Notes: generated from the sequence alone by a model not told the origin. Positions 8,733 to 52,863 are shown, counted from the stretch's first letter. The stretch is 64,000 nt of DNA from Castellaniella defragrans (GCF_040394755.1 NZ_JBEBRQ010000003.1), one strand, 5' to 3'. A program made the numbers and translations.

Positions 8733-8747
8733 ATGGCGGGTGCTGGA

Positions 8748-22269: not shown

Positions 22270-23256
22270 CTAGTTTCGGCGGAAATTTCTGAGACTGGAG
22301 GCAATCGCTCGGAGAGGCGCGGTGATCCTCCAAGATTTTGATTTTCTATATGAGGCCTCGGCCGCCAGACTCTGTTGGAGTTGATGTTTAAGACGAGAAA
22401 TTTCCCGTTCGGCATCTTGCGGCCATATTGAATTAACCACGCTTGATGTCTTGAAAGAATTAACCATGGCCTGCCAGCTGCTTATGATTTCTTCTTGATC
22501 CTCGCTGGAACGCAATGCCACAAAAAATTCAAGCTGATCTCGTTCGGTATCATGAAAGTCAACACATGCGAAGCCCAGCATACCGGTATGCGCCAACTCA
22601 AGAAACAGTTTGGCGAATGACTCCGGAGTGAAAACCCAGCAATGAACATCACGATACACCCCGTTTTCCAGCGAGTCTCGTGCCATATCCAACGCGTCCG
22701 AGAAGGAGTATTTCCTTCCCAGATTTTCAGCATCCACCCGACCTGCCCATACCCCCCCACAATCCACATCCCTGACCTTAAGAAAAAAATCCAATATCAG
22801 ATAGGGATGGGGTACTCGGGATTTTGTCAAATAACCAAGAAAAACCTCTGACAGCGTAGTTTCCGAGCGAAGAATATCGAACGTAAAACGCCGATCAGGA
22901 ACAACCAAACGCAACTGTCCGCCCGTATTCAGAATACAACGTACCTCAGACAACCAAGTGATTAGATCAGGCACATGCTCAACAACATGCGACGCAATAA
23001 CATAATCAACAGTGCGCCCATTCAATGCATTGCTTAGCGTATTCTTCCCCCATACGCCATCCACACCGACAATCGCATCAGCGTCGACATCGGGATCATT
23101 TTTATATTTTTCCCTTAGCGACTTAGTGTCCTCATGATCCACATACAGAATATTCCCTTCGCCTTTCGAGACGATGGGTCGGTGCAGCGGCCCTATTTCA
23201 GCACCAACACTGTTAACAATATCCAATCCACTGATTATCTTTTGCTTGCGGTCCAT
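22270..23256 (-). CDS. SAM-dependent methyltransferase with short C-terminal coiled coil
   Basis: EIGPL motif I variant, DYVIASHVVEHVPD, GGQLRLVVPD; ends ..EISRLKHQLQQ..SKSWRITAPLR. Confidence 0.8.
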   Translation of the reverse strand: MDRKQKIISGLDIVNSVGAEIGPLHRPIVSKGEGNILYVDHEDTKSLREKYKNDPDVDADAIVGVDGVWGKNTLSNALNGRTVDYVIASHVVEHVPDLITWLSEVRCILNTGGQLRLVVPDRRFTFDILRSETTLSEVFLGYLTKSRVPHPYLILDFFLKVRDVDCGGVWAGRVDAENLGRKYSFSDALDMARDSLENGVYRDVHCWVFTPESFAKLFLELAHTGMLGFACVDFHDTERDQLEFFVALRSSEDQEEIISSWQAMVNSFKTSSVVNSIWPQDAEREISRLKHQLQQSLAAEASYRKSKSWRITAPLRAIASSLRNFRRN

Positions 23257-23339: not shown

Positions 23340-24239
23340 TTAACCACGATCCAGCATCCAGCGCAAGGTGTCATGCAACAACGGAGGTTGCCAATTTCCG
23401 ATTAGCCTGCGCAACCTCTCCGAACTACCACAAAGCATCTTGACTTCATTTTTACGGATAAAATCAGGATTGATTTCAATATCAAGCCGATGCCCCGTGA
23501 TGTCTTGGCACATCCCCAGCACCTCATGCAGGGAATGGGCCAGACCAGTGCTGATATTGACAGTCTGACCAATGGCATTGGATCGTTCAAGCAATTCTTT
23601 ATAGGCACGCACAACCATGCGCACATCGCCAAAATCCCGATAAACCTGAATATTTCCAAGCTCGATGGAAACGGCTTTCTTGCGAAAGTGCGACACGATC
23701 TTGGGAATAAGAAAACTTTCCGCCTGACCCACGCCGGTATAATTGAACGGACGCGTGATGATGATAGGCAGCTTATCGGCATAAAGCTTGGCCATGTACT
23801 CCATGGCCAGCTTGCTGACGGCATAATCATTGGCGGGCGCCGGTACGACAGTTTCATCAATCATGCCTTCTGATGCATTGCCATACACATTGGCACTGCT
23901 AGCCAGCAAAATTGCTTTGGGCAGCCTGGGCAACCGGACCAGGGCCTGCAATAAATTCCTGGTGCCCAGCAGGTTGACATGATAAAAGGCATTTGCATTG
24001 CCATGCCCGACAAATGCCATAGCCGCCAAGTGGACGACCATATCAGGAGCTATCTGTCTGACCGCCTGCTCAAGCGCCCCTTCGTTCAATAAATTGACCT
24101 GCACACGATCGCGGCCAGATGGCGCGTGCGCAGTAAGGCCTACGACACGATATCCAGAAGACTCCAGTTCCTTCCGCATATAACAGCCGGTGAAACCATC
24201 GTCTCCCGTTACGAGTACGGTATTTCCATACCCGCTCAT
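23340..24239 (-). CDS. rmd: GDP-4-keto-6-deoxy-D-mannose reductase (Rmd-like)
   Basis: GDDGFTG, HLAAMAFV, ASSANVYG, YAVSK, RPFNYTGVGQ, RDFGDVR; coupled to gmd by TAATG. Confidence 0.8.
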   Translation of the reverse strand: MSGYGNTVLVTGDDGFTGCYMRKELESSGYRVVGLTAHAPSGRDRVQVNLLNEGALEQAVRQIAPDMVVHLAAMAFVGHGNANAFYHVNLLGTRNLLQALVRLPRLPKAILLASSANVYGNASEGMIDETVVPAPANDYAVSKLAMEYMAKLYADKLPIIITRPFNYTGVGQAESFLIPKIVSHFRKKAVSIELGNIQVYRDFGDVRMVVRAYKELLERSNAIGQTVNISTGLAHSLHEVLGMCQDITGHRLDIEINPDFIRKNEVKMLCGSSERLRRLIGNWQPPLLHDTLRWMLDRG

Positions 24240-25282
24240 TAGAAGGAAAATCCTTGCATATTGCGCCGGATGTCTTCCTGCACCATCATTTGGCACAATT
24301 GCTCCAGCATGGTATGAGGAGCCCATCCCAACTTGGCCTTGGCCTTTCCAGGATCACCGATCAACAGTTCTACCTCCGCAGGACGATAGAACTTTGGGTT
24401 AACGGAAACGAGTACCTTGCCAGTCCTGGCATCCCTGCCTACTTCATTCTCAGCCTTACCTGAAAATTCAAGTGTATATCCGGCAGCACCAAACGCCATG
24501 GACACGAAATCCCGGACAGATTCTGTACGATTGGTCGCCACCACATATGTATCAGGCTCATCCGCCTGCAGCATACGCCACATTGCATCCACATATTCCT
24601 TGGCATAACCCCAGTCGCGCTTGGCATCCAGGTTGCCAAGTTCCACGGCATCGAGCCTGCCCAATTTTATCTTGGCCACCGAATCGGTGATCTTTCGTGT
24701 GACGAACTCGCGACCACGCAGGGGGGATTCATGATTGAACAGAATCCCGCTTGCCCCGAATATGCCGTAGGATTCGCGGTAGTTGATAGTCATCCAATGC
24801 GCATACAACTTGGCAACCCCATAGGGACTGCGAGGATAAAATGGCGTTGATTCTGTTTGCGGGATAGTTTGTACCTTCCCGAACATTTCAGAAGTCGAAG
24901 CCTGATAATAACGCACCCTCGGATTGACGATGCGGATAGCCTCCAGGAGATTGACGGCACCTAAACCGGTAATCTCGGCCGTGGTGATAGGCTGCTCGAA
25001 GGAAACACCGACAAAGCTCTGCGCCGCCAAGTTATACACCTCGGTCGCCTCCGTGCCTTCCAGCAGGCGGATACTCGCGGAAAGGTCGGTTAAATCATAT
25101 TCAAGCAGATGCAGGCCTGGATGTTTGTCCACGCCGAGCTCCTCGATACGCCAGAAATTGACAGAACTGGTCCGACGGTAGGCACCATAGACAGCGTAGC
25201 CTTTTTCCAGCAGCAACTGCGCCAAATATGCGCCATCTTGACCTGTGATGCCAGTAATAATGGCTTTTTTAACAGTCGTCAT
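24239..25282 (-). CDS. gmd: GDP-mannose 4,6-dehydratase
   Basis: [46 protein letters not shown]. Confidence 0.97.
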
Positions 25283-25371
25283 GATTTAATCTACCAATAA
25301 GTCAATGGATGATGTCCTCTGCGGCGTTGATAGCCAACGGCCCGCACCACCCTTCTGGGACCCAGCATGAT

Positions 25372-26838
25372 TCATCTCTCTATCCGTCCGTAGATATCTT
25401 CGAATCGCACAATATCGTCCTCACCCAGGTACTCACCGCTTTGCACCTCAATCAAAACCAAGTCAATTACCCCTGGATTTTCCAACCGATGCTTATGACC
25501 AGCCGGTATAAAAACAGATTCATTACTATTCAACATCAGTTCTCGCTCGCCATTCACCACATGCGCCATGCCGCTGACAACCACCCAATGCTCACTGCGA
25601 TGATGGTGCAGTTGCAGTGATAAAGATCCTTTCGGCTTGACCACAATGCGCTTGATCTTGAAACGCTCGCCTTCTTCCAGCGTGGTATAGGTACCCCATG
25701 GGCGATGTACGGTCTGGTGCACCAGATGCGCCGTATGCCCGCTCTGCTTCAGAGCGCTGACTATATGCTTGACATCCTGCGCATCATTTTTGTGCGCCAC
25801 CAGCACGGCATCAGGGGTATCAACGACAATCAGATCTTGCACACCTACCAAAGCGGCAAGACGATGTTTACTCTGAACATAGTTATTCCTGGCATTGTAG
25901 GTAACCGCTTGGCCCACGATACGGTTGCCATCGCTGCCAGGTTCGACCAGTTCGCTCATGGCATTCCACGAACCAATGTCGCTCCAGCCAATATCGCAGG
26001 GTATCGTTGCTACCTTGGTAGATCGTTCCATCAGGGCATAGTCGATGGAAATTTCCGGTACTTGCGCAAAGGCATCGGCATCCAGGTTCAGATGGCGGTA
26101 CCCTTTGCCCTCCGCCATACGCGATTTTTCCAAAGTAGCTATCACGGCGCTCAACACATCATCGGCGAGTTTTTCCAGCTCTTCCAGGACCGTGCCTACG
26201 CGGAAGCAAAACATCCCGGAATTCCAGAAATAATTTCCCGCAGCCACATATTCCTTGGCGGAGGCGTCGTCTGGCTTTTCAACAAAACGCTTTACCTTGA
26301 ACCCGCTTTGCAATGGGCTCGCGCTATCGATCTCGATGTAGCCGAATCCTGTCTCTGGGTATTGGGCATGCATCCCGAAAGTGACCAGCCAGCCATGAGT
26401 AGCCAGATCTGCGGCTTTTTGCACCGCCATGGAAAACGCAGCTTCGTCCTTGATGAGATGATCCGCGGGCAGCACCAGCATGATAGCGTCTGGACCATGC
26501 GCCTGCTTCAGATGCACGGCAGCGGATGCCACGGCGGCAGCCGTGTTGCGGCCAAAGGGCTCGAGAATATAACTTTGCTGAAAATGAGCGTCAACCTTGC
26601 GGTATTCGTCCTCGGTCTTGAACAACAGCTCCCGGTTTGTCACGGTCAGCACTTCATTGACCCCGGCCTGGGCGCAGGCCCGCAGAAAGGTCTTCTGGAT
26701 CAGATTCTGCCCGTCAGGCAAGGTCATGAAGGGCTTGGGATGCGCCTGGCGCGATATAGGCCAGAGGCGGCTGCCAACCCCGCCAGACATAATGACAGGG
26801 ATTAATTTCACAGACGATACCTCAGGTATTGTGTTCAC
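25372..26838 (-). CDS. manC: Mannose-1-phosphate guanylyltransferase / mannose-6-phosphate isomerase
   Basis: GGVGSRLWPISR..PKPF, EPFGRNTA, WNSGMF, WSDIGSW; cupin RPWG, SLQLHHHRSEHW. Confidence 0.96.
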   Translation of the reverse strand: MNTIPEVSSVKLIPVIMSGGVGSRLWPISRQAHPKPFMTLPDGQNLIQKTFLRACAQAGVNEVLTVTNRELLFKTEDEYRKVDAHFQQSYILEPFGRNTAAAVASAAVHLKQAHGPDAIMLVLPADHLIKDEAAFSMAVQKAADLATHGWLVTFGMHAQYPETGFGYIEIDSASPLQSGFKVKRFVEKPDDASAKEYVAAGNYFWNSGMFCFRVGTVLEELEKLADDVLSAVIATLEKSRMAEGKGYRHLNLDADAFAQVPEISIDYALMERSTKVATIPCDIGWSDIGSWNAMSELVEPGSDGNRIVGQAVTYNARNNYVQSKHRLAALVGVQDLIVVDTPDAVLVAHKNDAQDVKHIVSALKQSGHTAHLVHQTVHRPWGTYTTLEEGERFKIKRIVVKPKGSLSLQLHHHRSEHWVVVSGMAHVVNGERELMLNSNESVFIPAGHKHRLENPGVIDLVLIEVQSGEYLGEDDIVRFEDIYGRIER

Positions 26839-26991: not shown

Positions 26992-28764
26992 TTACCATTC
27001 AGCCACTTGGCAGTCTACCCTGTCTTTAGGCAATCGAGGATTATAGTATGGGTCCCGCTGTATCTTATCAGGCCACTTGGATAGAAAATGCATTCTATCC
27101 GCCTCATCAACATCGCGCCTAGGAAGAGATGATCCCTCATAGTGATAAAGCAATGCATAAGGCGAATAAACAATCCTATAGCCCGCATCACGCATCCGAA
27201 GGCAGAAGTCTATATCGTTATAGTCAATTCTTAGTTTCGGATCGAACATCCCGACTTTTTCTATCACACTCATGCGAGTCGCCAACACAGCCCCCGTGAC
27301 CGCCGAATAATTCCGGATCAAATGCGTGAAGCCGCAATACCCAATCTCGCTGGATGGCAGATTATGGAATATATGTGTCGTCAAGCCGTTGACACCCAAA
27401 ACGACGCCCGCATGCTGCAAACGCCCATTTGGATAGATAAGCCTGGCCCCAACAGCCCCTATATCTGCCCGGCGAGAAAATGATAGCAATGCCTCAATCC
27501 AGTCTGGCGCGACGACCTCAATATCATCATTGAGCATGATGACATCTTCCGTTGTCACCAACCCCAACGCATGATTTGTTTTATCTGGGAAATTAAACGG
27601 CCCCTCGAATTCATATTGAGCCACCTTGACACCCCACTTCAAAAATCGATCATGGATATCCTCCGGCAATTTGCCATCATCCAGCACGATCAGATTGAAA
27701 TTTCTGAAGGTCGAACGCTCAATAATACTTTTAACCGCATTCTCAACCAATAAAATTTTTCCTCGGCCTTCCACCTCTCTGGTACAGCTCCCTGTAAGTA
27801 TCACTAAAGTGACAGGACGAGACGCATCGACAGGCCATTTAACGCGAAAACTTCCAGTAAACAAACCATCAACAACCTCAGCGGTCGGCTCCTGACTCTG
27901 CACGAAATCCGTGAGCGCCTTCTTGGCGTTGATCAAGGCGGTAGGCTTGGCATCAACTACCGCAGCCGCCGAGCCTGGAATTTTTCTCCAATGATAAAGC
28001 ACGTGAGGGATATGTTCCACCCGCCTTGCCTTCGCCGTGGCACGCAGCGCCAAATCATAATCTTGCGAGCCGGTAAACTCATCTCGCAGTCCGCCTAACT
28101 CAAGAAACAGCGATTTTCTGATCACCATAAAGTGCAGAACATACATTACCGAAAGAAGATGCTCGGGAGACCAATCCGGTTTCAAGTAAGGCTCGCTACG
28201 ACTTCCGTCCTCTTCGAGCTTGTCTTCATCCGTGTATAGAACATCAATGTCCGAGCCATTCTCAATCGCCTGGACGACAAGCTCCAGAGCCTTCGGCTCC
28301 AGGGTATCGTCATGATCCAAGAAGGCAATAAAATGGCCTGTGGCAAACTCAGCCGCAAGATTGGTCGCCCTGGCAATATGCAGATTTTTTGACGACCTGA
28401 CGATTTTGATGCGGGGGTCAGATCCTCGGTATTTTTCCAATACATGTACGGTTTCCTTCGAGCTAGATGCATCGTCGCACAAACATAGCTCCCAATTCGT
28501 ATATGTTTGATGCAAAACCGACTCTATCGCCTCATCAAGAATTTTTGCCGGAGTATTGTAAACAGGCACCAAGATACTTATCCGTGTACTGCCTCGAACT
28601 ACAGGTCCGTATGAGGCATTCCGCTCAGATGCCTGTGTAGGCCGAACGGCGGTCTTCCCAAGAACCCGTGCAGCTTGCGAGACCGCCATTTTTAAACCTA
28701 CGGCACGCGCAACAACCAAAAATCGACTGACCAAATGTAGAAATCGCTTCATTGACATCTTCAA
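26992..28764 (-). CDS. Two-domain GT2 glycosyltransferase
   Basis: ILVPVYNT..DDASS..FLDHDD..YTDED..GSQDYD; second domain LNDDIEV, AVTGAVL, NDIDFCLR. Confidence 0.9.
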   Translation of the reverse strand: MKMSMKRFLHLVSRFLVVARAVGLKMAVSQAARVLGKTAVRPTQASERNASYGPVVRGSTRISILVPVYNTPAKILDEAIESVLHQTYTNWELCLCDDASSSKETVHVLEKYRGSDPRIKIVRSSKNLHIARATNLAAEFATGHFIAFLDHDDTLEPKALELVVQAIENGSDIDVLYTDEDKLEEDGSRSEPYLKPDWSPEHLLSVMYVLHFMVIRKSLFLELGGLRDEFTGSQDYDLALRATAKARRVEHIPHVLYHWRKIPGSAAAVVDAKPTALINAKKALTDFVQSQEPTAEVVDGLFTGSFRVKWPVDASRPVTLVILTGSCTREVEGRGKILLVENAVKSIIERSTFRNFNLIVLDDGKLPEDIHDRFLKWGVKVAQYEFEGPFNFPDKTNHALGLVTTEDVIMLNDDIEVVAPDWIEALLSFSRRADIGAVGARLIYPNGRLQHAGVVLGVNGLTTHIFHNLPSSEIGYCGFTHLIRNYSAVTGAVLATRMSVIEKVGMFDPKLRIDYNDIDFCLRMRDAGYRIVYSPYALLYHYEGSSLPRRDVDEADRMHFLSKWPDKIQRDPYYNPRLPKDRVDCQVAEW

Positions 28765-28829: not shown

Positions 28830-31800
28830 TTATGAATCAGGATTGTATTGCCAGATACGATTCAACTCGGAACGCATCACCTGCATTGTTTTTTCACTGG
28901 AAAATAGACTTCCAGAATATGCCAGGCCTTTTTTCCCCAAATCATCCGCATAGCTTCTATCAGAAAATATTTTGCGCATCCCTTCGCGCATTGAAGCAGA
29001 CAATGGATCGGCCCACAAGTAATGTGGAGGATAGGGTGCGTTGCCTTCTCCAACCTCGACAAGACGATATTCCAGAGGCCATGCTGAGTCAGGGGTCACA
29101 AAATCAGCAGCCCCACCATAAGGCGTGGCAATCACGGGTTTTCCCGCTCTCATCGCTTCCAATATAGTCAGCCCGAGCCCCTCGGATCTGTGCGGTGAAA
29201 CATAACAATCAATCAGTTGAAAGAGATCATGCATTTCATGATCTTCCAGCGCCCTGTCCATGAAAATTATATCTGGACGCTGCCGAGCCATCGAAACAAG
29301 CTTCTGGATATTAACATCTTCAGGATTTGAATAATGTATTTTGATTAGACAACACGCACCATCATCCGGCCCGAATTCTTCAAGATAAGCATTGAGCAAT
29401 GCCAACGGATTCTTGCGGCCTAGAATGCTCCCCGCATCCGCCGCATAGAAAAAGATAAATCGATCATCGGGGAGATCAAAATCATGCCTTTTCATTGAAC
29501 ATGAGGTCTGTGATTGTTCCAGCATTGGACGAACCACACGGACAGGAGTCCTGGACACCGCGGCGACCGATCGTGCAATGAACTCACTTGCACACCAGAT
29601 CTCATCGAAACGATGGATTATTTCATGCCATTCAGGTAGGAGGGAAGACAGCTCCCAATATACTATCGCAACGTTATAGCAGCAGGGCGCCACAAGCTCT
29701 CTTAATGGCGCACAGTCGAGCAGACTCGCGTTTGCAAGCAGGTCAAGATTGAGATGAACGATATTGATCGGCTGCTTATCAATCGATGGATACTCGATGG
29801 GCGTTCGACGGAGCCGCTCGAATCCCAAGCGCCATGGAACGACATTGATTGGTATATCGGTCTCCAGCAAACAGGAGACATAACCTCTCGCGCTGATACT
29901 TACGCCATTGACAAACTCCACAGGTCCTATGAAATTGACCCCTAGTTTTTTATGTAAGGGTCTGATCCACGTCCGCAGGGCGGGGACTTTGTTGGCAGCG
30001 GATGTACGCCGCAGATTATTCTCTTTTGCCTTAAGTATGGCGCTCACATCGCATTGGGCAGGCTTGCCTGGCGCGGCCATTATTTCGATCTTGCTGCCCC
30101 ATAATGTGGTATCTCGCACTTCAGTTAGACCAATATGGCCATTTTCCTGCGTAGCGATTAGACCAAAGAGGCGTTCCATTGCATGCGCAGTTTTACCGTC
30201 ATTACTACCGTCCTCGGCTTCTAGAGATATGCCTGCATCGGTCAACTGTAATAGTTTTTTCAATGTCCGAGGCCCCATCCAGAACATGGTGCCGGCAAAA
30301 AATCCCCATTCGGGCGGCAGCGGCTTTCCTGGATAGAGTTGTCCTGCCAGCTTTTTGAGCTTTGGGCCATTATCCATGATGAGAGTAGGCCCCGAAACGT
30401 ATAGATCCTTCGCGCCAACCAGCAATAGGTCGGGGTCGGCCTGGAAACAACGGAGGATGCCACTGACAAGATACTTGTTATCCAGCACGCCCTGCAGCAT
30501 TAGCGTTCGCCACATTTCGGGCAAAGTCTGCCCCTTCTTTGTATGAAGCTTGCAGATCGCAGTGTAATTGCTGGCCGCGAGTAATGGTAGAACGGTCAAA
30601 AATGGGCCAATATCACGTCCGGCGTTACTGGTCGTAAGCACCCTCGCGGCAGGAAACAAACGATGCACCTGCTTCCGGAGTGCTTCCACATTGGAATCCT
30701 CGGATACAGACACATATAAATCAAAGACTATAGGAATATTGCGGAGAAAGAGTACAATCTCGCTCCAAAGATCCTCATAATAAAGATGCACCACAACTGC
30801 GATTTTGACATCTCGAAGCAATATGCCTGGATCGAAGGCTCGTTCCTCCTGTACCAATCCATGCTCAAGATAGTGGGATAGCAGATTCACATCACGAGAG
30901 GCCAACTCTGGATGCTGTGTTAGATACCACTTGCCGTCAAAAAGCGGGGCCGGCTCCCGGTTTTCATATATACCACGCCTCAAATAATGAGCAAGCGGAT
31001 TGATCCCGGTACGAACCACATCTTTATTCCGCATGAGATACCAGCTGGTATCGAATACGGGATTCGGATTCCGCCTTTCATCAACGCCAAATCTAAGATA
31101 ATGAACCAATGGGTTTACGCCGGAACTTGCCACATCCGGATATTGCGCCAGATACCAACTTGTAGTGAAAAGCGGATTGGGGTTGCGCCCTTCGATAGCG
31201 CCATGCATTAGGTAATGCCGTATTGGATCCTTGCCTTTTTCCGCAACATCCGGGTACTGTTTCAAATACCAATCGCAATCAAACAACCCGCTGGCGCAAA
31301 GCGATTTACGATCACGCGCAACCATGAGTATCTTCTGTATTGGATCGAATACCAAACGCATCAAATTAGCCAGCGGCAAGCACACATTGCGCATGAACCA
31401 ACGCAGCGGGTATGTCAGGCGCCAGATTTTGGAGCTGCGTAGCGCAGCGATCTCCTGCTGCAGCGATGCTATGGCCTGGCTCTTTTCGGTAATTTCGAGA
31501 TCGAGGGTTCTGACATGTTGCCGCAACACATCTGCATCGCGTGTTAGTTCGGTGACCCGATGAGATTCCTCAACGACGGTTTTCTGTGCCTGCCCCAACC
31601 GCTCTGACAACTGCGTTATTTCCTCCAAGGGATTGAATTTCCTTGAACTCCATTGATTATTTGTTTGCGGTGGCGCCACCGACTCGTATGTTGACAGATC
31701 GAAATGACCGGGAACAACTTTCTCCTGCGTTCCCGCAATAACGCGCTTACCCAACAAATTCTCTGCGACCGTTCGCTTCCGAACCACACACATTGAGTTT

Positions 31801-32432
31801 ATGAATTCGATGGAATGGATGGAGGCCAATTCCTCGATCTCAAAGTCGAGCCCATATTTATCACGGAATCCGGACAGCAAATCCATCGGTGGCTTCTCGA
31901 TGCCCCAGTGCTCATAGTTGACGATATCGGCCAGATGCTTGAAGAAACCAATGGATGAATATGGATCATACAGGCCACCATCAAACCCCTCCCAATAGCT
32001 GCAGTGCATATCCTCTGCAACAAACAGCCCGCCATCAACGAGATATTTGAAATACCGAACAAAGCTCTGAATGATATCTCCAGAGGTGTGCGACCCATCG
32101 TCAATGACGATGTCGAATCGATCGGAAATAGCGATAATGCATTCTTGCGTGGCGTCTTTGTTCGCATCGCCAACAACAACAGTAATCCGAGGATCATCGT
32201 ACCGAAGACGCGCACAGTCCGGATTGATGTCGCAACCCACAAGATGCACCGCATTTGGAAAATATTTTCCCCAGATATCCAATGACCCGCCATTTTGTAC
32301 ACCTATCTCCAGAAGATTGACGGGATGCTCTTGATAAGGATCGAACAAGCGATCGTATTCTTCCAGATATAAACTCCATTTATCGGAAACTTTCCCGGTG
32401 TGTTCACGATAGAGTTGCTTTAATTTGGTCAT
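28830..32432 (-). CDS. 1200-aa multidomain O-polysaccharide enzyme: methyltransferase - coiled coil - 4x38-aa repeats - RgpF-like GT - GT4
   Basis: LEIGVQNGGS/IVIDDGSH (class I MTase); heptad region; VVHLYY..GRDIGPF..KLHTKK..FAGTMFW..HAMERLF (RgpF); SEGLGLTILEAM (GT4). Confidence 0.85.
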   Translation of the reverse strand: MTKLKQLYREHTGKVSDKWSLYLEEYDRLFDPYQEHPVNLLEIGVQNGGSLDIWGKYFPNAVHLVGCDINPDCARLRYDDPRITVVVGDANKDATQECIIAISDRFDIVIDDGSHTSGDIIQSFVRYFKYLVDGGLFVAEDMHCSYWEGFDGGLYDPYSSIGFFKHLADIVNYEHWGIEKPPMDLLSGFRDKYGLDFEIEELASIHSIEFINSMCVVRKRTVAENLLGKRVIAGTQEKVVPGHFDLSTYESVAPPQTNNQWSSRKFNPLEEITQLSERLGQAQKTVVEESHRVTELTRDADVLRQHVRTLDLEITEKSQAIASLQQEIAALRSSKIWRLTYPLRWFMRNVCLPLANLMRLVFDPIQKILMVARDRKSLCASGLFDCDWYLKQYPDVAEKGKDPIRHYLMHGAIEGRNPNPLFTTSWYLAQYPDVASSGVNPLVHYLRFGVDERRNPNPVFDTSWYLMRNKDVVRTGINPLAHYLRRGIYENREPAPLFDGKWYLTQHPELASRDVNLLSHYLEHGLVQEERAFDPGILLRDVKIAVVVHLYYEDLWSEIVLFLRNIPIVFDLYVSVSEDSNVEALRKQVHRLFPAARVLTTSNAGRDIGPFLTVLPLLAASNYTAICKLHTKKGQTLPEMWRTLMLQGVLDNKYLVSGILRCFQADPDLLLVGAKDLYVSGPTLIMDNGPKLKKLAGQLYPGKPLPPEWGFFAGTMFWMGPRTLKKLLQLTDAGISLEAEDGSNDGKTAHAMERLFGLIATQENGHIGLTEVRDTTLWGSKIEIMAAPGKPAQCDVSAILKAKENNLRRTSAANKVPALRTWIRPLHKKLGVNFIGPVEFVNGVSISARGYVSCLLETDIPINVVPWRLGFERLRRTPIEYPSIDKQPINIVHLNLDLLANASLLDCAPLRELVAPCCYNVAIVYWELSSLLPEWHEIIHRFDEIWCASEFIARSVAAVSRTPVRVVRPMLEQSQTSCSMKRHDFDLPDDRFIFFYAADAGSILGRKNPLALLNAYLEEFGPDDGACCLIKIHYSNPEDVNIQKLVSMARQRPDIIFMDRALEDHEMHDLFQLIDCYVSPHRSEGLGLTILEAMRAGKPVIATPYGGAADFVTPDSAWPLEYRLVEVGEGNAPYPPHYLWADPLSASMREGMRKIFSDRSYADDLGKKGLAYSGSLFSSEKTMQVMRSELNRIWQYNPDS
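30830..31286 (-). repeat. Four 114-bp (38-aa) intragenic repeats
   Basis: LFDCDWYLKQYPDV..HYL..G..EGRNPNP / LFTTSWYLAQYPDV.. / VFDTSWYLMRNKDV.. / LFDGKWYLTQHPEL..; unit starts 31286, 31172, 31058, 30944. Confidence 0.9.
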
Positions 32433-33799
32433 GACGAAGATCTTAGAGATACATGATCGAATCTGATACCAACCAGCCCCCAGCGCACTTTACTTGACGA
32501 CACATTGATGAACATGGCGTCGTGGAGCAAATGGTGCTGTACGTTGTTATGCAAATCGCCATCGGCCACAGAGGCCATTACTGAATACGTGCCGTTGGGA
32601 AGCATAGGTAGCGTGAAAACGAACACCCCCTCAAAAACAGTTCCTTTTTCCATCGGCTGCGGGCAATTGGCGGTGAAGGGCAGGGTGTTCTCTCCGAACA
32701 GGTCCTGCCCAAGGCGATCCCGGACGATGAAACCCAATATGGGATGCGGTAAGTCTTGGTTTGCCCTGGCCCTGATCCGAAGCTGGACACGCTCCCCGCC
32801 TTTCAGCACTGGCGCGCTCTTGCCATCAACCGTTGCAAACTCGATATCGATTATTTCCGCGCCACCGCTTTTCCATCCATTTGCCGCATTCAGATTATTT
32901 TTGATTCGATTAGAGGATTCGTAATCCAGTATGGCATCTCGTTGGATAGACTCCTCATCGACATCATCAAGCAGCGCATCACTCTCGAACTCCAGCTTTG
33001 CCCCCTGTGTCGATTCGACAGGAGCCAGCTTCGCCTCCTCACCGTAAATTTCTTGCAGCGTATACTGCAGATAGGCCTCCGAGATAGCTTTTGATTCCCC
33101 CATCCGCACAATCTTTCCATTGCCAAGCCATATTGCGGACTTGCAAAGGTTCAATACCGAACCCATATCGTGGCTTACAAACAGCAGGGTTCCGCTCTTT
33201 TGGAATTCACGAATGAAACGCATGCATTTCTGCGTGAATACGGCATCGCCAACGGCCAATGCTTCATCAATGACGAGTATATCGGCATCCACATGCGCAA
33301 TGACGGCAAAGGCAAGACGCACATACATGCCGCTGGAGTAAGTCTTGACTGGATGGTCGAGATGCTCTCCAATATCCGCAAACATGGCAATTTTATTGAA
33401 CCTGGCATCTACTTGTTCAGTGCTAAGTCCATACAAAGAAGCAGCCATATAGACATTCTCGCGCCCAGTAAACTCCGGGTTGAAGCCAGCCCCCAGCTCC
33501 AATAAAGCCGCAACCTTCCCATTCACGGTGATGTGGCCTAACGTAGGATTCAGAGTGCCGCAAATCATCTGCAGCAACGTTGACTTACCCGAACCGTTGC
33601 GACCAATGATGCCCACTGTTTCACCTTTAAGTACAGTGAAGGATACGTCGCGCAAGGCCCAGAATTCGTGAAATAGCGCTTTTTTCCCCCGAAGAAACAT
33701 TTGTAGAAGCCGGTCGCGTGGCTTGTCGAAAATAGGATAAGCCTTACCAAGACCCTCCACGCGAATGGCTATATCGCCAGCAGAAACCTCAGATGACAT
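32429..33799 (-). CDS. wzt: O-antigen ABC transporter ATPase with C-terminal carbohydrate-binding domain
   Basis: GRNGSGKST, LLELGAGFNPEFTGREN, YSSGMYVRLAF, DEALAVGD plus a Wzt_C-like beta domain. Confidence 0.93.
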   Translation of the reverse strand: MSSEVSAGDIAIRVEGLGKAYPIFDKPRDRLLQMFLRGKKALFHEFWALRDVSFTVLKGETVGIIGRNGSGKSTLLQMICGTLNPTLGHITVNGKVAALLELGAGFNPEFTGRENVYMAASLYGLSTEQVDARFNKIAMFADIGEHLDHPVKTYSSGMYVRLAFAVIAHVDADILVIDEALAVGDAVFTQKCMRFIREFQKSGTLLFVSHDMGSVLNLCKSAIWLGNGKIVRMGESKAISEAYLQYTLQEIYGEEAKLAPVESTQGAKLEFESDALLDDVDEESIQRDAILDYESSNRIKNNLNAANGWKSGGAEIIDIEFATVDGKSAPVLKGGERVQLRIRARANQDLPHPILGFIVRDRLGQDLFGENTLPFTANCPQPMEKGTVFEGVFVFTLPMLPNGTYSVMASVADGDLHNNVQHHLLHDAMFINVSSSKVRWGLVGIRFDHVSLRSSS

Positions 33800-34607
33800 C
33801 CGCGAACCCTTTACGTGTTTTCTGAAACCATGCAAAACCAAGCACGGCTGCAAAAAAACAGCCGGCCAGATACATCAGATATCGGCCCGGGTCCGGCACA
33901 GTGCCCCAATACAGAATCTCACGGATCTGACTTATCGCCGGCGCAAGCGGATTAAGTACCAACAACGGCCGATATTTTTCTGGAAGCGCCTCGATGGGGA
34001 AAAAAATAGGCGAAAGAAACATCAGCACCGTCGTCAGGATTCCAACCAGCTGGCTGATGTCTCGCAAATACACGCCGAGCGAGGCAAGCCCCCATCCCAA
34101 TCCGACTATCAGTAATATCAAAGGAAACAACACGAAAGGAAGGAGCAATACGGTAAAATGCGGCGGACCGATTACGATGGCATAGAATATGAGCCATACA
34201 AAAGCGCTGATGAGGGCATGGAATAATGCTGACCCAATGGCAACCCAGGGCAGGACCTCCAGCGGGAATATGACTTTCTTCACATAATTCGCGTTAGAAA
34301 GAACCAGGCTTGGCGAGCGATTGAAGCATTCAGCAAAAAGGTTGAATACGATCATTCCCGCAAAAAGGATTAGCGCAAATTCGGCCCTTGACTCACTACC
34401 CCCGCTCCACCGAACCTTGAACACGACACTGAATACGAACGTATAGACCGCCAGCATGAAGACCGGATTGAAAAACGACCAGAGCAATCCAAGCATGGAC
34501 CCTCGATAACGGCCGATAACCTCTCTTTTTGCGAGGGCGAGAATCAAGCGTCTATTCCGCCACAAACTCGCCACCATTTCGCGGGGTGATGCACTGAAGT
34601 GTTGCAT
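33789..34607 (-). CDS. wzm: O-antigen ABC transporter permease
   Basis: RYRGSMLGLLWS, NANYVKKVIFP, YLRDI, LNPL motifs. Confidence 0.94.
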   Translation of the reverse strand: MQHFSASPREMVASLWRNRRLILALAKREVIGRYRGSMLGLLWSFFNPVFMLAVYTFVFSVVFKVRWSGGSESRAEFALILFAGMIVFNLFAECFNRSPSLVLSNANYVKKVIFPLEVLPWVAIGSALFHALISAFVWLIFYAIVIGPPHFTVLLLPFVLFPLILLIVGLGWGLASLGVYLRDISQLVGILTTVLMFLSPIFFPIEALPEKYRPLLVLNPLAPAISQIREILYWGTVPDPGRYLMYLAGCFFAAVLGFAWFQKTRKGFADVI

Positions 34608-35152
34608 CAGGCGAATACCTCGGCATTGACCAGCAGGATTGCCGCCTTGTCTTTGTCAGAGAGCAGCGGCTCACCGGCGAAAGGCCATTCGATCCCGATT
34701 GCGGGGTCGCGCCATGAGATACCTCGCTCAAACCGCGGCGCATAATAATCCGTGGTCTTGTACAAGAATTCCGCCGTATCCGACAGCACGACAAACCCAT
34801 GCGCAAACCCCTCCGGCACCCAAAGCTGTTTCTTGTTTTCGGCACTGAGCCTTTCCCCAACCCATTTCCCAAAACTAGGCGAATTCTTGCGAATATCCAC
34901 CGCCACATCGAATACTTCACCAACAACAACTCTGACCAATTTCCCCTGAGGTTGCTGGATCTGGTAGTGCAAACCGCGCAATACATTCCGAGCCGATTTG
35001 GAGTGATTGTCTTGCACAAAGGTCACTTTACGGCCAATCGCCTCCTCGAATTCCGCATGATTGAAACTCTCGAAAAAGAACCCCCGATCGTCCCCAAAAA
35101 CCTTGGGTTCGAAAAGGATCACATCTGGAATGGCAAGCCGGGTCGCTTTCAT
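34607..35152 (-). CDS. rfbC: dTDP-4-dehydrorhamnose 3,5-epimerase
   Basis: FGDDRGFFFESFN, QDNHSKS, LRGLHYQ, PEGFAHGF. Confidence 0.96.
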   Translation of the reverse strand: MKATRLAIPDVILFEPKVFGDDRGFFFESFNHAEFEEAIGRKVTFVQDNHSKSARNVLRGLHYQIQQPQGKLVRVVVGEVFDVAVDIRKNSPSFGKWVGERLSAENKKQLWVPEGFAHGFVVLSDTAEFLYKTTDYYAPRFERGISWRDPAIGIEWPFAGEPLLSDKDKAAILLVNAEVFA

Positions 35153-35154
35153 GA

Positions 35155-36036
35155 CTATTTGACCTCCCTGGCAATCTGCATGAGATACTTCCCATACCCA
35201 TTCTTGCTCAACGGCTTGGCCAACTTCCGGACCTGCTCCGCATCGATCCACTTCTGCCGGAACGCAATTTCCTCCGGGCAGGCAACCTTCAACCCCTGGC
35301 GGTTCTCCAGGGTGGCAATGAACTGCCCCGCCTCCAGCAAGGATTCGTGCGTGCCGGTGTCCAGCCACGCGTAGCCGCGGCCCATGATTTCGACATTCAA
35401 TGTGCCCTGCTCCAGATAGAGGCGATTCAGGTCGGTGATCTCCAGTTCACCCCGGGCGGAGGGCTTCAGGTCTTTTGCCAGACCGACCACCTGGTTGTCG
35501 CAGAAATAGAGTCCCGTGACGGCATAATTGGATTTGGGCTTGGCCGGTTTTTCCTCCAGTGACAGCACCCGGCCATCCTCGTTGAACTCGGCCACGCCGT
35601 AGCGCTCAGGGTCCTGGACGCGATAGGCGAACACGCTCGCGCCTTCAATGCGCTGCATGGCATTGCCCAGCAGCCGATGAAAGTCGTGCCCGTAAAAGAT
35701 GTTGTCGCCCAGCACCAGGGCCGATGGGCCGTTGCCCACGAAATCCGCGCCGATGATGAATGCCTGCGCCAGCCCATCGGGGCTGGGCTGCACGGCGTAC
35801 TGCAGGTTCAGCCCCCACTGGCTGCCATCGCCCAGCAGCTGCTCGAAGCGCGGCGTGTCTTGCGGGGTGGAGATGATCAGGATGTCGCGGATGCCGGCCA
35901 GCATCAGGGTGGACAGCGGGTAATACACCATGGGCTTGTCGTACACCGGCAGCAGTTGCTTGCTGACGGCCAGGGTGGCGGGGTGCAGGCGCGTGCCGGA
36001 TCCGCCGGCCAGGATGATGCCTTTGCGTTGTGTCAC
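35155..36036 (-). CDS. rfbA: Glucose-1-phosphate thymidylyltransferase
   Basis: [38 protein letters not shown]. Confidence 0.97.
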
Positions 36037-36039
36037 GGT

Positions 36040-36930
36040 TTACTTCTCCAGAATCTCTGCCAACATGCGGGCGACGCCCGTTTGCCAATGCGGCAGGGTC
36101 AAGCCAAATGTGGTTTGCAGTCGATGGGTGTCCAGGCGCGAATTGCGCGGCCGTTGGGCGGGGGTGGGAAAGGCGCTGGTGGGCACGGGCTGGATGGCGT
36201 CCGCCGCCACTTTCAGGTCCACCCCATAGGCGCGAGCGATGTCCAGTACGTAGCAGGCGTAGCCATGCCAGGAGGTTTCTCCGCCCGCCACCAGGTGATA
36301 CAGGCCGGCGGTTGCCGGCCGATCCTGCGCGGCGCGCAGGGCGTGGGCGGTGACGTCGGCCAGCAGATCGGCCCCGGTGGGTGCGCCGATCTGATCGTCG
36401 ATCACGGTCAGGGCGTCCCGCTCGCGGGCCAGGCGCAGCATGGTTTTGGCGAAGTTGCCGCCGCGCGCGGCATACACCCAGCTGGTGCGAAAAATCAGGT
36501 GCCGGCAGCCCGAGTCCCGAATGGCAATCTCGCCGTCCAGCTTGCTGCGGCCATAGACATTCAAAGGTCCGGTCGTATCGGTCTCGACCCAGGGGGTGCT
36601 GCCGCTGCCGTCAAATACATAGTCGGTGGAATAATGCACCAGCCATGCGCCCAGGCGATTGGCCTCGGTCGCCAGCAGGGCCGGAGCCAGCGTATTCAAC
36701 TGGCGGGCCAGATCGGGTTCGCTTTCGGCCTTGTCCACGGCGGTGTGGGCGGCCGCGTTCACGATGACGTCGGGGGCGATGCCGCGCACAGTCTGCTTGA
36801 CCTCGTCCAGGCGGGTGTAGTCCCCGCCCGGCGTGTCGCGGCCCAGGGCGATCAGCTCACCCAGCGGCGCCAGGCTGCGTTGCAGTTCCCATCCTAACTG
36901 GCCGCACTTTCCCAGCAGCAATATCCTCAT
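36040..36930 (-). CDS. rfbD: dTDP-4-dehydrorhamnose reductase
   Basis: [36 protein letters not shown]. Confidence 0.95.
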
Positions 36931-37997
36931 ACGGCGCGCCCGCTGTAGTTCTGTTCGACCCAATCGCGATAGGCGCCGGTTTGCACGGTTTCAACCCACG
37001 CCTGGTGGTCCAGATACCATTGGACGGTCTTGCGGATGCCGGTTTCAAAGGTTTCGGCGGGTTTCCAGCCCAGTTCGCGTTCCAGCTTGCGGGCATCGAT
37101 GGCGTAGCGGCGATCATGGCCGGGCCGATCCCTGACGAAGGCGATCTGCTCCTGGTAGCTTTTTCTATCCAGGCGAGGCCGCAGCTCATCCAACAAAGTA
37201 CAGACGGTATGGACGATCTCGAGATTCGTCTTTTCGTTCCAACCGCCGACGTTGTAGACCTCACCCGTTTCACCGGCTTGCAACACACGCCGGATGGCGC
37301 TGCAGTGATCCTCGACGTAGAGCCAGTCGCGGATCTGCTGGCCGTCGCCATACACGGGCAAGGGTTTGCCCGCCAGCGCGTTGACGATCATCAGCGGAAT
37401 CAGTTTTTCCGGGAAATGGTAGGGGCCATAATTGTTGGAGCAATTGGTCGTCAGGACCGGCAAACCATAGGTATGGTGATACGCGCGCACCAGGTGGTCG
37501 CTGGCGGCCTTGCTGGCCGAATAAGGGCTGTTGGGCTCGTAGCGATGGGTTTCGCTGAACGCCGCATCGTCTTTGTCCAGGGACCCGTAGACTTCGTCGG
37601 TGGAGACATGCAGGAAACGAAAGCCGGTTTTGCGCTCGCCCGCCAGGCCATTCCAATAGGCGCGCACGGATTCCAGCAGATGAAAGGTGCCAACGATATT
37701 GGTCTGTATGAAATCCTCGGGACCGTGGATGGAGCGATCCACGTGGCTTTCTGCCGCGAAATTGATGACAGCACGTGGGGCATGATCGGCCAGCAATCGA
37801 TCGACCAGCGCGCCATCGCCGATGTCGCCTTGCACGAAGGCATGGCGCGCATCCCCCTGCAGGCTTTCGAGGTTGTGCAGGTTGCCGGCATAGGTCAGCT
37901 TGTCCAGGTTGATCACCGGCTCGTCGCTATTTTTCAGCCAGGCCAGCACGAAATTCGCGCCGATGAAACCAGCGCCTCCCGTCACTAATATCGTCAT
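36927..37997 (-). CDS. rfbB: dTDP-glucose 4,6-dehydratase
   Basis: [44 protein letters not shown]. Confidence 0.97.
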
Positions 37998-42308: not shown

Positions 42309-42562
42309 ACTCTGTCAGCTTTGTTCGCATCATCACAGAAACAATAATTTGTTACCGCATTCTGGCGAATCGCCTGTCTTTACCCCTGCAACTGCCGGAC
42401 AAACGCTCAAAAAATCCTGATTCGCCAAAAAATAGTGGCGATACGATCTATCGGCCCTGATCGGCCATTGCGCTTCAAGGATGGCCCATGAGGTCGCGCA
42501 GTCTGGCGATGCGCTTTTCCTCTTGGGTTCTGACTGGGACTGCCCAGACTACACTTGGGGCT

Positions 42563-44862: not shown

Positions 44863-44872
44863 TTCAATCCGA

Positions 44873-45976: not shown

Positions 45977-46073
45977 TTGGCAAACATGCACGTGAATACT
46001 CAATTCCGTGCCCACAACATTGAAAAGGAATCCGCGAATGGTCCGACGCAGCAAGCTCACCACAATGGGCGCT

Positions 46074-47381: not shown

Positions 47382-47414
47382 GAAGGCCTAACAGGATATA
47401 ATGACAACCGAAAA

Positions 47415-48581: not shown

Positions 48582-48638
48582 TCGCCCGTTGGGCTGCCAA
48601 TATCGTTCAAATGATGTCGCATTGAAATTGCGCAGTAA

Positions 48639-49931: not shown

Positions 49932-50043
49932 ACTCCTGGAATCTGGCTGGATTGATCAAGAGATTCCTTAAGCAGGGTCCTTGGATCTTTCAAGAGATTC
50001 ATAGCGCGGGATAACATGCCAATTCCATAAATCGACATCCGAT

Positions 50044-51131: not shown

Positions 51132-51135
<4 letters not shown>
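50044..51135 (-). CDS. wbpE: UDP-3-keto-GlcNAcA aminotransferase (DegT/DnrJ family)
   Basis: [42 protein letters not shown]; coupled to wbpD and wbpB. Confidence 0.88.
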
Positions 51136-52831
<1,696 letters not shown>

Positions 52832-52863
52832 CAATACTACGGAATCAAGGCTACCCGGCAGGT

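Follow-up and report, generated by a model that had tools for sequence, protein, structure and literature searches.

The question raised by this locus of Castellaniella defragrans is whether one protein can both build a surface polysaccharide and stop its growth. The window we analysed is a stretch of 64,000 nucleotides, and the candidate terminator-ruler-polymerase is encoded by an uninterrupted ORF with an ATG start (positions 28830..32432, minus strand; 1200 aa). Judging from its sequence, the protein most likely does both, building a rhamnose-rich surface polysaccharide and ending each chain, once it has a set length, by methylation of the tip. We put the probability at roughly 60% that the ORF is a multi-module assembly protein for an ABC-transporter-dependent surface polysaccharide, most likely the LPS O-antigen.

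Modules of the 1200-residue protein

A preliminary description of the ORF had listed an N-terminal methyltransferase, a heptad region of ~65 residues, four 38-aa repeats, an RgpF-like domain and a GT4 domain. Pfam, phmmer, AF2, Foldseek and heptad and repeat analysis agree that this domain set is real, with the reservation that, of the RgpF family, only the C-terminal half is present. The domain parsing it had proposed, done with AlphaFold-type models, recovered all of the modules, and the AF2 models of the two halves of the protein have a pLDDT of 90.3 (N-terminal) and 93.0. The order in the one polypeptide is methyltransferase (aa 1-235), coil (268-332), tail, repeats and two glycosyltransferase (GT) modules (541-811 and 832-1200). 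Pfam, AF2 and Foldseek thus place the putative terminator and two GT modules on a single chain, with the terminator at the coil's distal end. The best of the relatives with the full architecture are 35–47% identical.

The first module (31728..32432, minus strand) is a Mg/SAM-dependent sugar O-methyltransferase domain of the MycE/SpnK kind by Pfam, phmmer and Foldseek. It carries the motifs LEIGVQNGGS (41-50), DDGSH (111-115), ED (140-141) and H143, and Pfam Methyltransf_24 matches aa 41-141 with 24.6 bits, slightly under the cut-off of 26.3. The phmmer match in the PDB is MycE (2.6e-20). Foldseek with the AF2 model gave MycE (1e-13) and SpnK (2e-12), with generic methyltransferases at about 1e-6. 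The closest solved structures are therefore deoxyhexose/rhamnose O-methyltransferases, namely MycE, a 6-deoxyallose 2-O-methyltransferase, and SpnK of the spinosyn pathway. The domain shares its catalytic fold and a SAM-binding motif with these enzymes, and phmmer aligns the DDGSH and ED motifs with their MycE equivalents. Residues E42, G44, Q46, G48, D112, H115, E140, D141 and H143 are identical in 60 of 60 homologs; by analogy with MycE, D112, H115, E140 and D141 would be the metal ligands and the catalytic His base. The two proteins differ in that the alignment covers only residues 202-361 of the 419 in MycE. No counterpart of the N-terminal auxiliary domain of MycE was found in the phmmer alignment, and the query methyltransferase begins at residue 1. 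MycE and SpnK act on macrolides, whereas by analogy the substrate here would be the end of a polymer.

The coil is a single 65-residue heptad helix (31437..31631, minus strand), predicted from AF2 and the heptad register to be a coiled coil. Hydrophobic residues occupy 17 of the 24 a/d positions in one register, and the monomer model and heptad counting predict a length of about 9.7 nm if the helix is fully coiled. The helix terminates, as had been described, in SSKIWRLTYPLRW (aa 333-345), the start of a WbdD-type tail that we delimited by homolog conservation and pairwise alignment (aa 333-381; 31290..31436, minus strand). The tail includes amphipathic helices (aa 344-373, muH 0.5–0.62), and no transmembrane segment was found within aa 333-381. 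Pairwise BLAST aligned aa 303-346 with residues 274-320 of E. coli O8 WbdD (E 2e-6), matching SSKIWRLTYPLRW to NSRSWRITQPLRW with SWR(I/L)TxPLRW in common. By this sequence comparison the two coil-end motifs are homologous; in O8 WbdD, too, a coil precedes the tail and the gene lies directly after wzt. Among homologs, W337 is kept in 58 of 60 and R344 in 57 of 60. Across 71 homologs, a spacer of anything between 86 and 411 aa separates the methyltransferase from the tail, and both of these stay conserved. WbdD recruits the polymerase WbdA through the part that lies C-terminal to its coil (PMC3482155).

Behind the tail are four repeats (aa 383-534; 30831..31286, minus strand), identified by repeat analysis and AF2. 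Their period is exactly 38 aa, with a conserved Trp at 388, 426, 464 and 502 and the consensus LFDxxWYLxxYPDVAxxGxNPLxHYLxxGxxEGRDPxP, and AF2 predicts three short helices per repeat. The repeat matched no Pfam or NCBIfam model. Related proteins have between 1 and 27 copies.

The first GT module (aa 541-811; 30000..30812, minus strand) is an alpha/beta glycosyltransferase-like lobe by Pfam and AF2. PF05045 (RgpF) matches aa 541-763 at 2.3e-30, but only over model positions 269-501 of 503; the full two-lobed model was not matched by Pfam, and the C-terminal lobe is present alone. The lobe has the motifs GRD (605), HTKK (630), FFAGTMFW (711) and AHAMER (749), and a search for a PDB sequence relative found none. 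From sequence inspection, unscored against the model, Variovorax relatives seem to have the other RgpF lobe at the same place. RgpF enzymes are L-rhamnosyltransferases (PMC9574508), and the analogy suggests that the lobe may use dTDP-L-rhamnose, which fits the rmlBDAC genes that lie in the same operon direction. The second GT module (aa 832-1200; 28833..29939, minus strand) is a complete GT4 domain of the retaining type by Pfam and Foldseek. It matches Glycos_transf_1 (PF00534) at 7e-13, as well as PF13692, and has a whole GT-B fold of two Rossmann domains (Foldseek 3oy2, 1e-15, TM 0.75; also BshA, GlgM and PimA) with the motif E1084-x7-E1092.

A domain search of the next gene (26992..28764, minus strand) found a 590-aa protein with two GT2 modules. 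Homologs that are 61% and 44% identical to it lie directly after repeat-RgpF proteins in two other loci (L001 and L003), and the two-GT2 protein co-occurs with RgpF-C+GT4 proteins elsewhere. It is likely to be a further component of the polymerase.

Export genes, gene order and sugar supply

The ORF lies directly downstream of wzt, whose C-terminal domain had been described as looking like a cap-recognising CBM; the position and the presence of a carbohydrate-binding domain both held up. The ATG of the ORF overlaps the TGA stop of wzt in an ATGA. The wzt gene (32429..33853, minus strand) encodes an ABC ATPase with a C-terminal carbohydrate-binding domain (~32468-32881), with Pfam matches to ABC_tran and to Wzt_C (PF14524) at 1.4e-31. 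The true start probably lies downstream of the TTG listed for it. A domain search identified wzm, the ABC-2 permease, at 33789..34607 (minus strand). The closest PDB match of the Wzt C-terminal domain is the Aquifex protein (9e-7), followed by that of E. coli O9a (9.5e-6), and in pairwise comparison it matches O8 Wzt at 5e-13. The Aquifex domain binds 3-O-methyl caps, and Wzt carbohydrate-binding domains are essential for exporting capped chains (PMC9445017). In a weak pairwise alignment to the Aquifex pocket, Leu300 is replaced by Ile and Arg304 is kept, and Thr346, Ala348 and the methyl-pocket Trp362 differ.

The mechanism we propose would work as follows. The tail motif and the amphipathic helices of aa 333-381 would hold the complex at the membrane, to its partners, or both, and the 65-residue coiled coil would keep the N-terminal methyltransferase at a distance from the polymerase. 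Once the non-reducing end of the growing chain arrives at the methyltransferase it would be O-methylated, and elongation would stop. The Wzt C-terminal domain would then bind the methylated end and so license export by Wzm and Wzt. The preliminary description had combined extension, methyl-capping and cap-reading export in the same way, and this combination is compatible with every computational test run (methyltransferase kinship, tail homology, gene order and Wzt_C).

How common the arrangement is can be seen from a library search in which the sequences were clustered at 50% identity. At E<=1e-30 it found 813 clusters that combine a MycE-type methyltransferase with the coil and tail of WbdD type, and among the best 150 matches most are fused to varied sets of GTs. 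The order wzm, wzt, methyltransferase-coil is found with the genes adjacent in the window and in six other loci (L002, L004, L010, L011, L014 and L015), from unrelated phyla. Compared with those of the window, the Wzt C-terminal domains of L004, L010 and L011 are 56–61% identical and the methyltransferases 56–60%. L004, from a Nitrospira MAG, encodes the methyltransferase-coil-tail on its own, in a 344-aa gene; this gene overlaps wzt, and a large GT protein is encoded after it. This fission form places the boundary between terminator and polymerase at about aa 380.

Two of these loci bear on a different explanation. In L014 (Achromobacter) and L015 (Variovorax) the methyltransferase-coil lies beside a short Wzt, of 247 and 233 aa, that has no carbohydrate-binding domain, so cap reading is not an obligatory partner of the module. 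It could be that the methyltransferase modifies residues inside the chain or plays no part in termination, that the coil serves only in oligomerisation or as a scaffold, and that length depends on how polymerisation and export are balanced, as it does in systems that lack a carbohydrate-binding domain; the variation in spacer length may then be neutral drift. The methyltransferases of the P. aeruginosa CPA, which are unlike WbdD in their action (PMC3560663), also count against a terminator. Yet the Wzt of the window does have Wzt_C, a domain type essential to the export of capped chains; WbdD, which is established as a length regulator, has a homologous coil and tail; and the methyltransferase was at the coil end far from the GT modules in every relative examined. 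We consider this explanation improbable, and prefer a methylating terminator held off by the coil.

The sugar supply comes from both sides of the ORF. A domain search found rmlB-rmlD-rmlA-rmlC, for dTDP-L-rhamnose synthesis, at 34607..37997 (minus strand). At 23340..26838 (minus strand) are manC, gmd and an SDR reductase, a route from GDP-mannose to a GDP-6-deoxyhexose of the D-rhamnose or 6-deoxytalose type; the gmd equivalog model scores 476 bits against a cut-off of 415. By its gene content, the locus is predicted to supply both dTDP-L-Rha and GDP-6-deoxyhexose. The rhamnan product and the coil-set chain length of the preliminary description are putative in a locus that has both these sugar routes, the two GT2 modules of the next gene and a further methyltransferase with its own short coil.

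All initiating transferases within the window are WcaJ/EPS-type phosphoglycosyltransferases and none is WecA-type, which means that the product may not be O-antigen. With the same enzymatic roles it could be a capsule-like polysaccharide or exopolysaccharide, or a protein-linked glycan. WsaE, a precedent for the architecture, itself makes an S-layer glycan, and L001, from Methylobacteriaceae, has the RgpF-C+GT4 polymerase part without wzm/wzt or the methyltransferase. Against this, the layout is typical of O-antigen loci (rml, wzm, a wzt that encodes a carbohydrate-binding domain, GTs and gmd), GC is low across the locus, and the locus resembles the O-antigen loci of P. syringae and E. coli O8. 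Such a product strikes us as a poor bet, and LPS O-antigen is the product we favour.

Another tail-bearing methyltransferase in the locus

Pfam identifies a second methyltransferase, of the Methyltransf_23 type (22270..23256, minus strand; 328 aa), about 5.6 kb downstream of the ORF and past the sugar-nucleotide genes. Its end is made up of a short coil and the tail motif that the ORF also has, here KSKSWRITAPLR (22309-22332), and in pairwise alignment with WbdD it has no significant similarity outside the tail. The locus therefore has two candidate terminators, which counts against the ORF being the terminator. One way to read this is that the second protein is the true terminator and that the methyltransferase of the ORF is redundant or adds a further methyl group, giving a two-step or di-O-methyl cap. 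The tail and the Pfam methyltransferase type are both shared with O8 WbdD, the Variovorax locus L015 likewise has two tail-bearing proteins, and of the two methyltransferases of the P. aeruginosa CPA, which are partly redundant, one at least is needed (PMC3560663). However, it is the MycE-type methyltransferase-coil gene, and not a Methyltransf_23 gene, that directly follows wzt in the seven loci, and the second gene is distant, with a methyltransferase domain unlike that of WbdD. We think it unlikely that the second protein is the true terminator, and keep the ORF in that role.

A broader and rather speculative idea treats the tail of WbdD type (SxSWRxTxPLR) as a universal dock that plugs interchangeable terminal-modifying enzymes into one polymerase/exporter complex. 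The two methyltransferases, with coils of about 65 and 25 residues, would share the dock and produce a two-step cap (for example di-O-methyl) or two modal lengths, and the 38-aa array would put another spacer between dock and polymerase, one adjusted through the number of its copies.

Known systems and what the chimera means

The preliminary description had called the domain combination uncharacterised. This was an overstatement, since WsaE, ORF6 of K. pneumoniae O7, WbbB and the fused genes of P. syringae share its logic. The WbdD proteins of E. coli O8 and of O9a / K. pneumoniae O3 have the same methyltransferase-coil-tail order, their gene overlaps and follows wzt, and their partner Wzt has Wzt_C; O8 WbdD is a methyltransferase-only terminator. 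They differ in having a Methyltransf_11/23/25 domain where the ORF has a MycE/Methyltransf_24-like one: no significant alignment of the methyltransferase domains was found, and no WbdD is among the PDB sequence or fold matches listed. WbdD is also a separate protein that recruits WbdA, whereas the ORF has its polymerase modules fused behind the tail. Pfam and NCBIfam found no kinase domain in the ORF.

Compared by description, K. pneumoniae O7 ORF6 (PMC11231755) unites its parts in one polypeptide: the methylating terminator, which is a methyltransferase-kinase, at the N-terminus, a coiled-coil ruler, and at the C-terminus two modules for rhamnosyl transfer of the dTDP-Rha GT2 type. A neighbouring gene adds a GT. 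ORF6 makes a methyl-phosphate with two GT2 modules, while our ORF has no kinase, an RgpF lobe plus GT4, and the 4 x 38-aa repeats between tail and GTs. WbbB of Raoultella terrigena / K. pneumoniae O12 similarly joins terminator, coiled coil and two polymerase GTs in one chain, with a Wzt that reads the cap, but the terminator is a GT99 beta-Kdo transferase and the polymerase is GT102/GT103. Fold comparison of the ORF's N-terminal half gave no GT99 structure among its top 50 listed matches.

WsaE of Geobacillus stearothermophilus NRS 2004/3a has a 2-O-methyltransferase at the N-terminus, which caps L-rhamnose, and two rhamnosyltransferase domains; the genes wzm, wzt and wsaE overlap, and rml is in the cluster (PMC2943079). 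By this description both architecture and context match the ORF; the product is the glycan of an S-layer glycoprotein and the host is Gram-positive. The literature covered describes no ruler coil. Homologous wzm-wzt-wsaE-wsaF blocks occur in Xanthomonas (PMC2238763). P. syringae isolates have fused GT/O-methyltransferase genes, and the P. syringae locus likewise pairs L- and D-rhamnose genes with an operon for transport, elongation and termination, wzm-wzt-wbdD-wbdA (PMC7820976). Set beside the ORF by description, it differs in that its polymerase has two GT4 domains and its evidence is genetic and bioinformatic only.

What is new, at the level of sequence, is the set of modules: a MycE-type putative terminator on a WbdD-type coil and tail, a 38-aa repeat without a Pfam model, and a second, unrelated methyltransferase with the same tail. 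To our knowledge no member of the methyltransferase-coil-tail family has been studied biochemically, with WsaE as a possible exception. The finding does not overturn the current understanding but extends a known principle, in that the coil-and-tail module of WbdD is joined to an unrelated MycE-type methyltransferase in a chimera that is very common. The short conserved tail motif is a handle for mapping how terminators dock, and the unannotated 38-aa repeat merits a family model. O-antigen length and end-capping govern serum resistance, receptors for phages and tailocins, and recognition by plants and animals. Only a few enterobacterial proteins underlie the coiled-coil ruler model, and the ORF, as a predicted simple methyl-only terminator, would make the ruler idea testable outside the Enterobacteriaceae.

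Domains and genomic setting

The 1200-aa protein is encoded by one open frame without interruption (28830-32432, minus strand). A preliminary description, made from the sequence alone, had listed a methyltransferase, a coiled coil ending in a distinctive motif, four repeats, an RgpF-type domain and a GT4 domain, and we found all of these elements with Pfam, phmmer, AF2, Foldseek, and heptad and repeat analysis.

The N-terminal domain matches Methyltransf_24 slightly below the Pfam cut-off. With phmmer against PDB, it hit MycE (2.6e-20) and, at 1e-13, another sugar O-methyltransferase (8ia9). Foldseek on the AF2 model for aa 1-545 (pLDDT 90.3) gives MycE and SpnK at 1e-13 to 2e-12, far better than the roughly 1e-6 of generic methyltransferases. 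The glycine-rich SAM loop (E42, G44, Q46, G48) is invariant in 60 homologs, as are D112, H115, E140, D141 and H143. These residues align with the DDGSH and ED motifs of MycE in phmmer, and we take them to be metal ligands and the catalytic base, after MycE.

The coil (aa 268-332) is modeled by AF2 as a single helix of exactly 65 residues. In one heptad register, 17 of its 24 a and d positions are hydrophobic. Directly after it come SSKIWRLTYPLRW and then two helices modeled at lower confidence; aa 344-373 are strongly amphipathic (muH 0.5-0.62). There is no transmembrane segment anywhere in the protein.

The AF2 model of aa 536-1200 (pLDDT 93) has two modules. The first is alpha/beta and matches PF05045 RgpF (2.3e-30) at model positions 269-501 of 503, a match confined to the C-terminal half of the family model. 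The second, which contains E1084-x7-E1092, is a full GT-B domain (Foldseek 3oy2, 1e-15, TM 0.75, with further matches to BshA, GlgM and PimA). A profile search of PDB matched the GT4 part only, and the Foldseek listing for the C-terminal model was occupied by GT4 enzymes.

The gene sits in an island with a GC of about 0.49, against 0.60-0.69 in the flanks, and all of the island genes are on the minus strand. They run rmlB, rmlD, rmlA, rmlC, wzm, wzt and the 1200-aa gene, followed by the gene of a 590-aa protein with two GT2 domains, manC, gmd (above the equivalog cut-off), an SDR reductase gene and a second methyltransferase gene, with a WcaJ-type phosphoglycosyltransferase gene beyond it. The TGA of wzt overlaps the ATG of the 1200-aa ORF (tcATGAcc), and Wzt itself matches PF14524 Wzt_C (1.4e-31). 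A genome scan found no relative closer than 42% identity. One aldolase encoded in the flanks shares a >=90% cluster with a protein of a Castellaniella MAG, a weak sign that the host probably belongs to the Alcaligenaceae.

Some mechanical starts overlap upstream genes, namely wzt (TTG 33853, by 65 nt, 33789-33853) and rmlC (GTG 35368, by 214 nt, 35155-35368). Because the conserved domains start at residues 29 (wzt) and 78 (rmlC) of these ORFs, both genes probably begin further 3'.

A second glycan locus, of the Wzx/Wzy type (about 41000-54100, minus strand), adjoins the ABC-transporter locus, and between the two lies a 600-aa fused ABC exporter of the MsbA/PglK/HepA type (38875-40677, minus strand). 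The second locus encodes, all on the minus strand, a phosphoglycosyltransferase (40998-42308), two GT4 proteins (42563-43795 and 44873-46063), a UDP-GlcNAc 2-epimerase (43792-44862), a 435-aa ORF that has no Pfam match and is possibly Wzy (46074-47381), a C5-epimerase-like protein (47415-48581), a Wzx-like flippase (48639-49931), an aminotransferase (50044-51135) and a Wzz-like protein (52864-54096). Its GC falls to 0.41-0.45 at 46-50 kb.

The coil end and the second methyltransferase

We compared the protein with WbdD of E. coli O8. The O8 cluster of E. coli IAI1 runs manC, manB, wzm, wzt, methyltransferase, a large GT4 protein, a GT4 protein and wbdC. The 425-aa methyltransferase is in the WbdD position, directly 3' of wzt, and after its coil it reads ...QLHQQMADLHNSRSWRITQPLRWLSLQ... 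This coil-end region aligns with aa 303-346 of the 1200-aa protein (pairwise, E 2e-6) and with the second methyltransferase (9e-5). WbdD recruits the polymerase WbdA through the part that lies C-terminal to its coil (PMC3482155). Given the O8 alignment and this role, we judge that the motif singled out in the preliminary description is the conserved end of a WbdD-type coil. The methyltransferase domains of the two proteins, however, do not align and their Pfam families differ; PDB phmmer, Foldseek and pairwise alignment led us to reject a WbdD-like catalytic domain.

Searching all six frames of the window for the tail pattern W[RKQ][ILVM][TAS]x[PA][LIVM][RK] gave only two occurrences, where roughly 0.05 per window would be expected by chance. 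One is at the end of the coil of the 1200-aa protein. The other, KSKSWRITAPLR at 22309-22332, is at the C-terminus of the second methyltransferase (22270-23256, minus strand), after a short coil (...LKHQLQQSLAAEASYRKSKSWRITAPLRAIASSLRNFRRN). This second enzyme (328 aa, Methyltransf_23 type) had no matches in PDB, and its catalytic domain is unrelated to the methyltransferase of the 1200-aa protein. Two proteins with such a tail are also encoded in a Variovorax locus (L015), with the motif at 10099-10122 and 19902-19925.

The tail is well conserved in the homolog alignment (W337 in 58 of 60, T340 in 53, P342 in 50 and R344 in 57), and where a fused protein has a different enzyme at its N-terminus, the motif is 46-60 residues ahead of the first repeat. 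Between the methyltransferase and the tail, the spacer ranges from 86 to 411 residues with both of its ends conserved; it is 127 residues in the 1200-aa protein and has a median of 114 in stand-alone proteins. A variable spacer held between conserved ends is what a ruler model would expect, although such variation in length could also be neutral drift.

Repeats, relatives and gene order

The four repeats (30831-31286, minus strand) have a period of exactly 38 residues, with the consensus LFDxxWYLxxYPDVAxxGxNPLxHYLxxGxxEGRDPxP, and AF2 models each as three short helices (pLDDT >90). No Pfam or NCBIfam model matches the repeat, even at E<=10. With a local HMM we found it in 170 of the 365 retrieved proteins, P0003, P0050 and P0057 among them, in 1-27 copies at a modal spacing of 38, and it typically adjoins glycosyltransferase modules.

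The full-length query matched at least 3637 proteins (90%-identity clusters) at E<=0.001, and 76 of the 120 matches listed have only the repeat region in common with it. Because the repeats dominated this search, we searched the halves of the protein separately. Relatives of aa 541-1200 are 640-1000-aa proteins, many from Rhizobiales and kin, that reach 64% identity and have the repeats without a methyltransferase. RgpF of NGR234 was considered as the closest characterized relative and dropped: tblastn against plasmids gave Rhizobium sp. CB3171 at 61% identity, and the 25 records listed did not include pNGR234a.

The N-terminal query (aa 1-376) had 5108 matches in 90%-identity clusters, and the best were mostly stand-alone proteins of 320-400 aa that span the methyltransferase, coil and tail. 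When we searched exhaustively for this type of module in 1.84 billion 50%-identity representatives, 813 clusters matched at E<=1e-30 and, at the looser threshold of E<=1e-10, 5298. Of the 150 best matches, 98 exceed 700 aa, and nearly all of these longer proteins carry the module at their very N-terminus; 14 of the 150 have the 38-aa repeat, 11 have an RgpF-type lobe and none has the full module set. Among the matches listed, the same four modules occur only in P0002 and P0011 (Methylobacterium-type), at 35-47% identity per domain. From these counts, we judge the general plan to be common and the combination in the 1200-aa protein to be rare.

A methyltransferase-coil gene lies directly 3' of wzm-wzt in loci of six lineages: Chloroflexota (L002), Nitrospira (L004), Smithella (L010), a deltaproteobacterial MAG (L011), Achromobacter (L014) and Variovorax (L015). 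Identity to the window in the Nitrospira, Smithella and deltaproteobacterial loci is 56-61% for the Wzt C-terminal domain and 56-60% for the methyltransferase. Wzt C-terminal domains are usually very divergent, and since 56-61% is high for such a family, this suggests that the cap-maker and cap-reader travel together. The pairing is not universal. Achromobacter (8130-8873, 247 aa) and Variovorax (8121-8822, 233 aa) have a Wzt without the carbohydrate-binding Wzt_C domain despite the methyltransferase-coil gene after wzm-wzt, which is a counter-example: the terminator module is not always paired with a cap-reading exporter.

In Nitrospira a gene of its own, with a start that overlaps the stop of wzt, encodes a 344-aa terminator ending in ...NSNSWRITKPLRTLSNWLK; after it comes a WsaF-like/GT2 protein of 1535 aa, which lacks the repeats. 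Since this locus carries the fission form, we place the putative functional boundary in the 1200-aa protein at about residue 380. Homologs of the 590-aa GT2 protein lie directly 3' of repeat-RgpF proteins in two other loci (61% identical in L001 and 44% in L003), and the 590-aa protein is probably part of the same polymerase as the 1200-aa protein. Two MycE-type methyltransferase domains stand in tandem directly after wzt in Smithella (10001-11326) and the deltaproteobacterial MAG (9986-11473), and these tandems may mean that the cap is methylated twice.

Cap reading is supported by comparison with solved structures: nearest to the window's Wzt C-terminal domain is that of Aquifex (9e-7), a binder of caps made of 3-O-methyl-mannose or -rhamnose (PMC9445017). 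Next are those of E. coli O9a (9.5e-6) and O8 (5e-13, pairwise), with the Kdo-binding Raoultella domain much weaker (0.16). We rejected the alignment as evidence for 3-O-methyl specificity, because the methyl-pocket residues of the Aquifex domain, including the key Trp362, are not conserved in it.

Proposed mechanism and known systems

GT4 enzymes WbpX, WbpY and WbpZ use GDP-D-Rha and WsaF uses dTDP-L-Rha. Donors of both kinds (dTDP-L-Rha type and GDP type) are supplied by genes of the locus. RgpF enzymes transfer L-Rha (PMC9574508). We propose that the glycosyltransferase modules and the 590-aa protein would polymerize a rhamnose-containing chain. The tail and amphipathic helices would anchor the assembly to the membrane or to partners, and the coil, at 0.15 nm for each of its 65 residues, would keep the methyltransferase about 10 nm away. 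Growth would end once the terminal sugar is O-methylated, and the Wzt C-terminal domain would then bind the cap and license export.

We hold this mechanism as a whole with a confidence of 0.6. On rough estimates for its parts, we are highly confident that the 1200-aa protein acts in ABC-transporter-dependent glycan assembly, we think it fairly likely that it methylates the chain terminus, and we hold a true ruler function only tentatively. The feature is real and had been described correctly, and its earlier reading as a polymerase, ruler and terminator in a single chain is plausible.

The same description had called the combination uncharacterized. Since the design is established in known systems, this is true only of the particular families found here. 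WbdD and WbdA divide the work between two proteins, and in WbbB a single chain combines a GT99 terminator with a coil and GT102/GT103 modules. ORF6 of K. pneumoniae O7 consists of a methyltransferase-kinase, a coil and two GT2 modules for dTDP-Rha, with another GT acting in trans, and the same study describes the strategy as widespread and the distribution of modules as flexible (PMC11231755). WsaE, whose gene overlaps wzt, combines a 2-O-methyltransferase at its N-terminus with two rhamnosyltransferase domains (PMC2943079), and its architecture as published is like that of the 1200-aa protein. Xanthomonas has gene blocks homologous to the WsaE block (PMC2238763), and a study of the P. syringae TET operon reports fused GT/O-methyltransferase genes (PMC7820976).

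The value of the finding lies in a terminator family of the MycE type attached to a coil and tail of the WbdD type, in one tail motif common to two methyltransferases within a single locus, and in a 38-aa repeat outside the Pfam and NCBIfam models.
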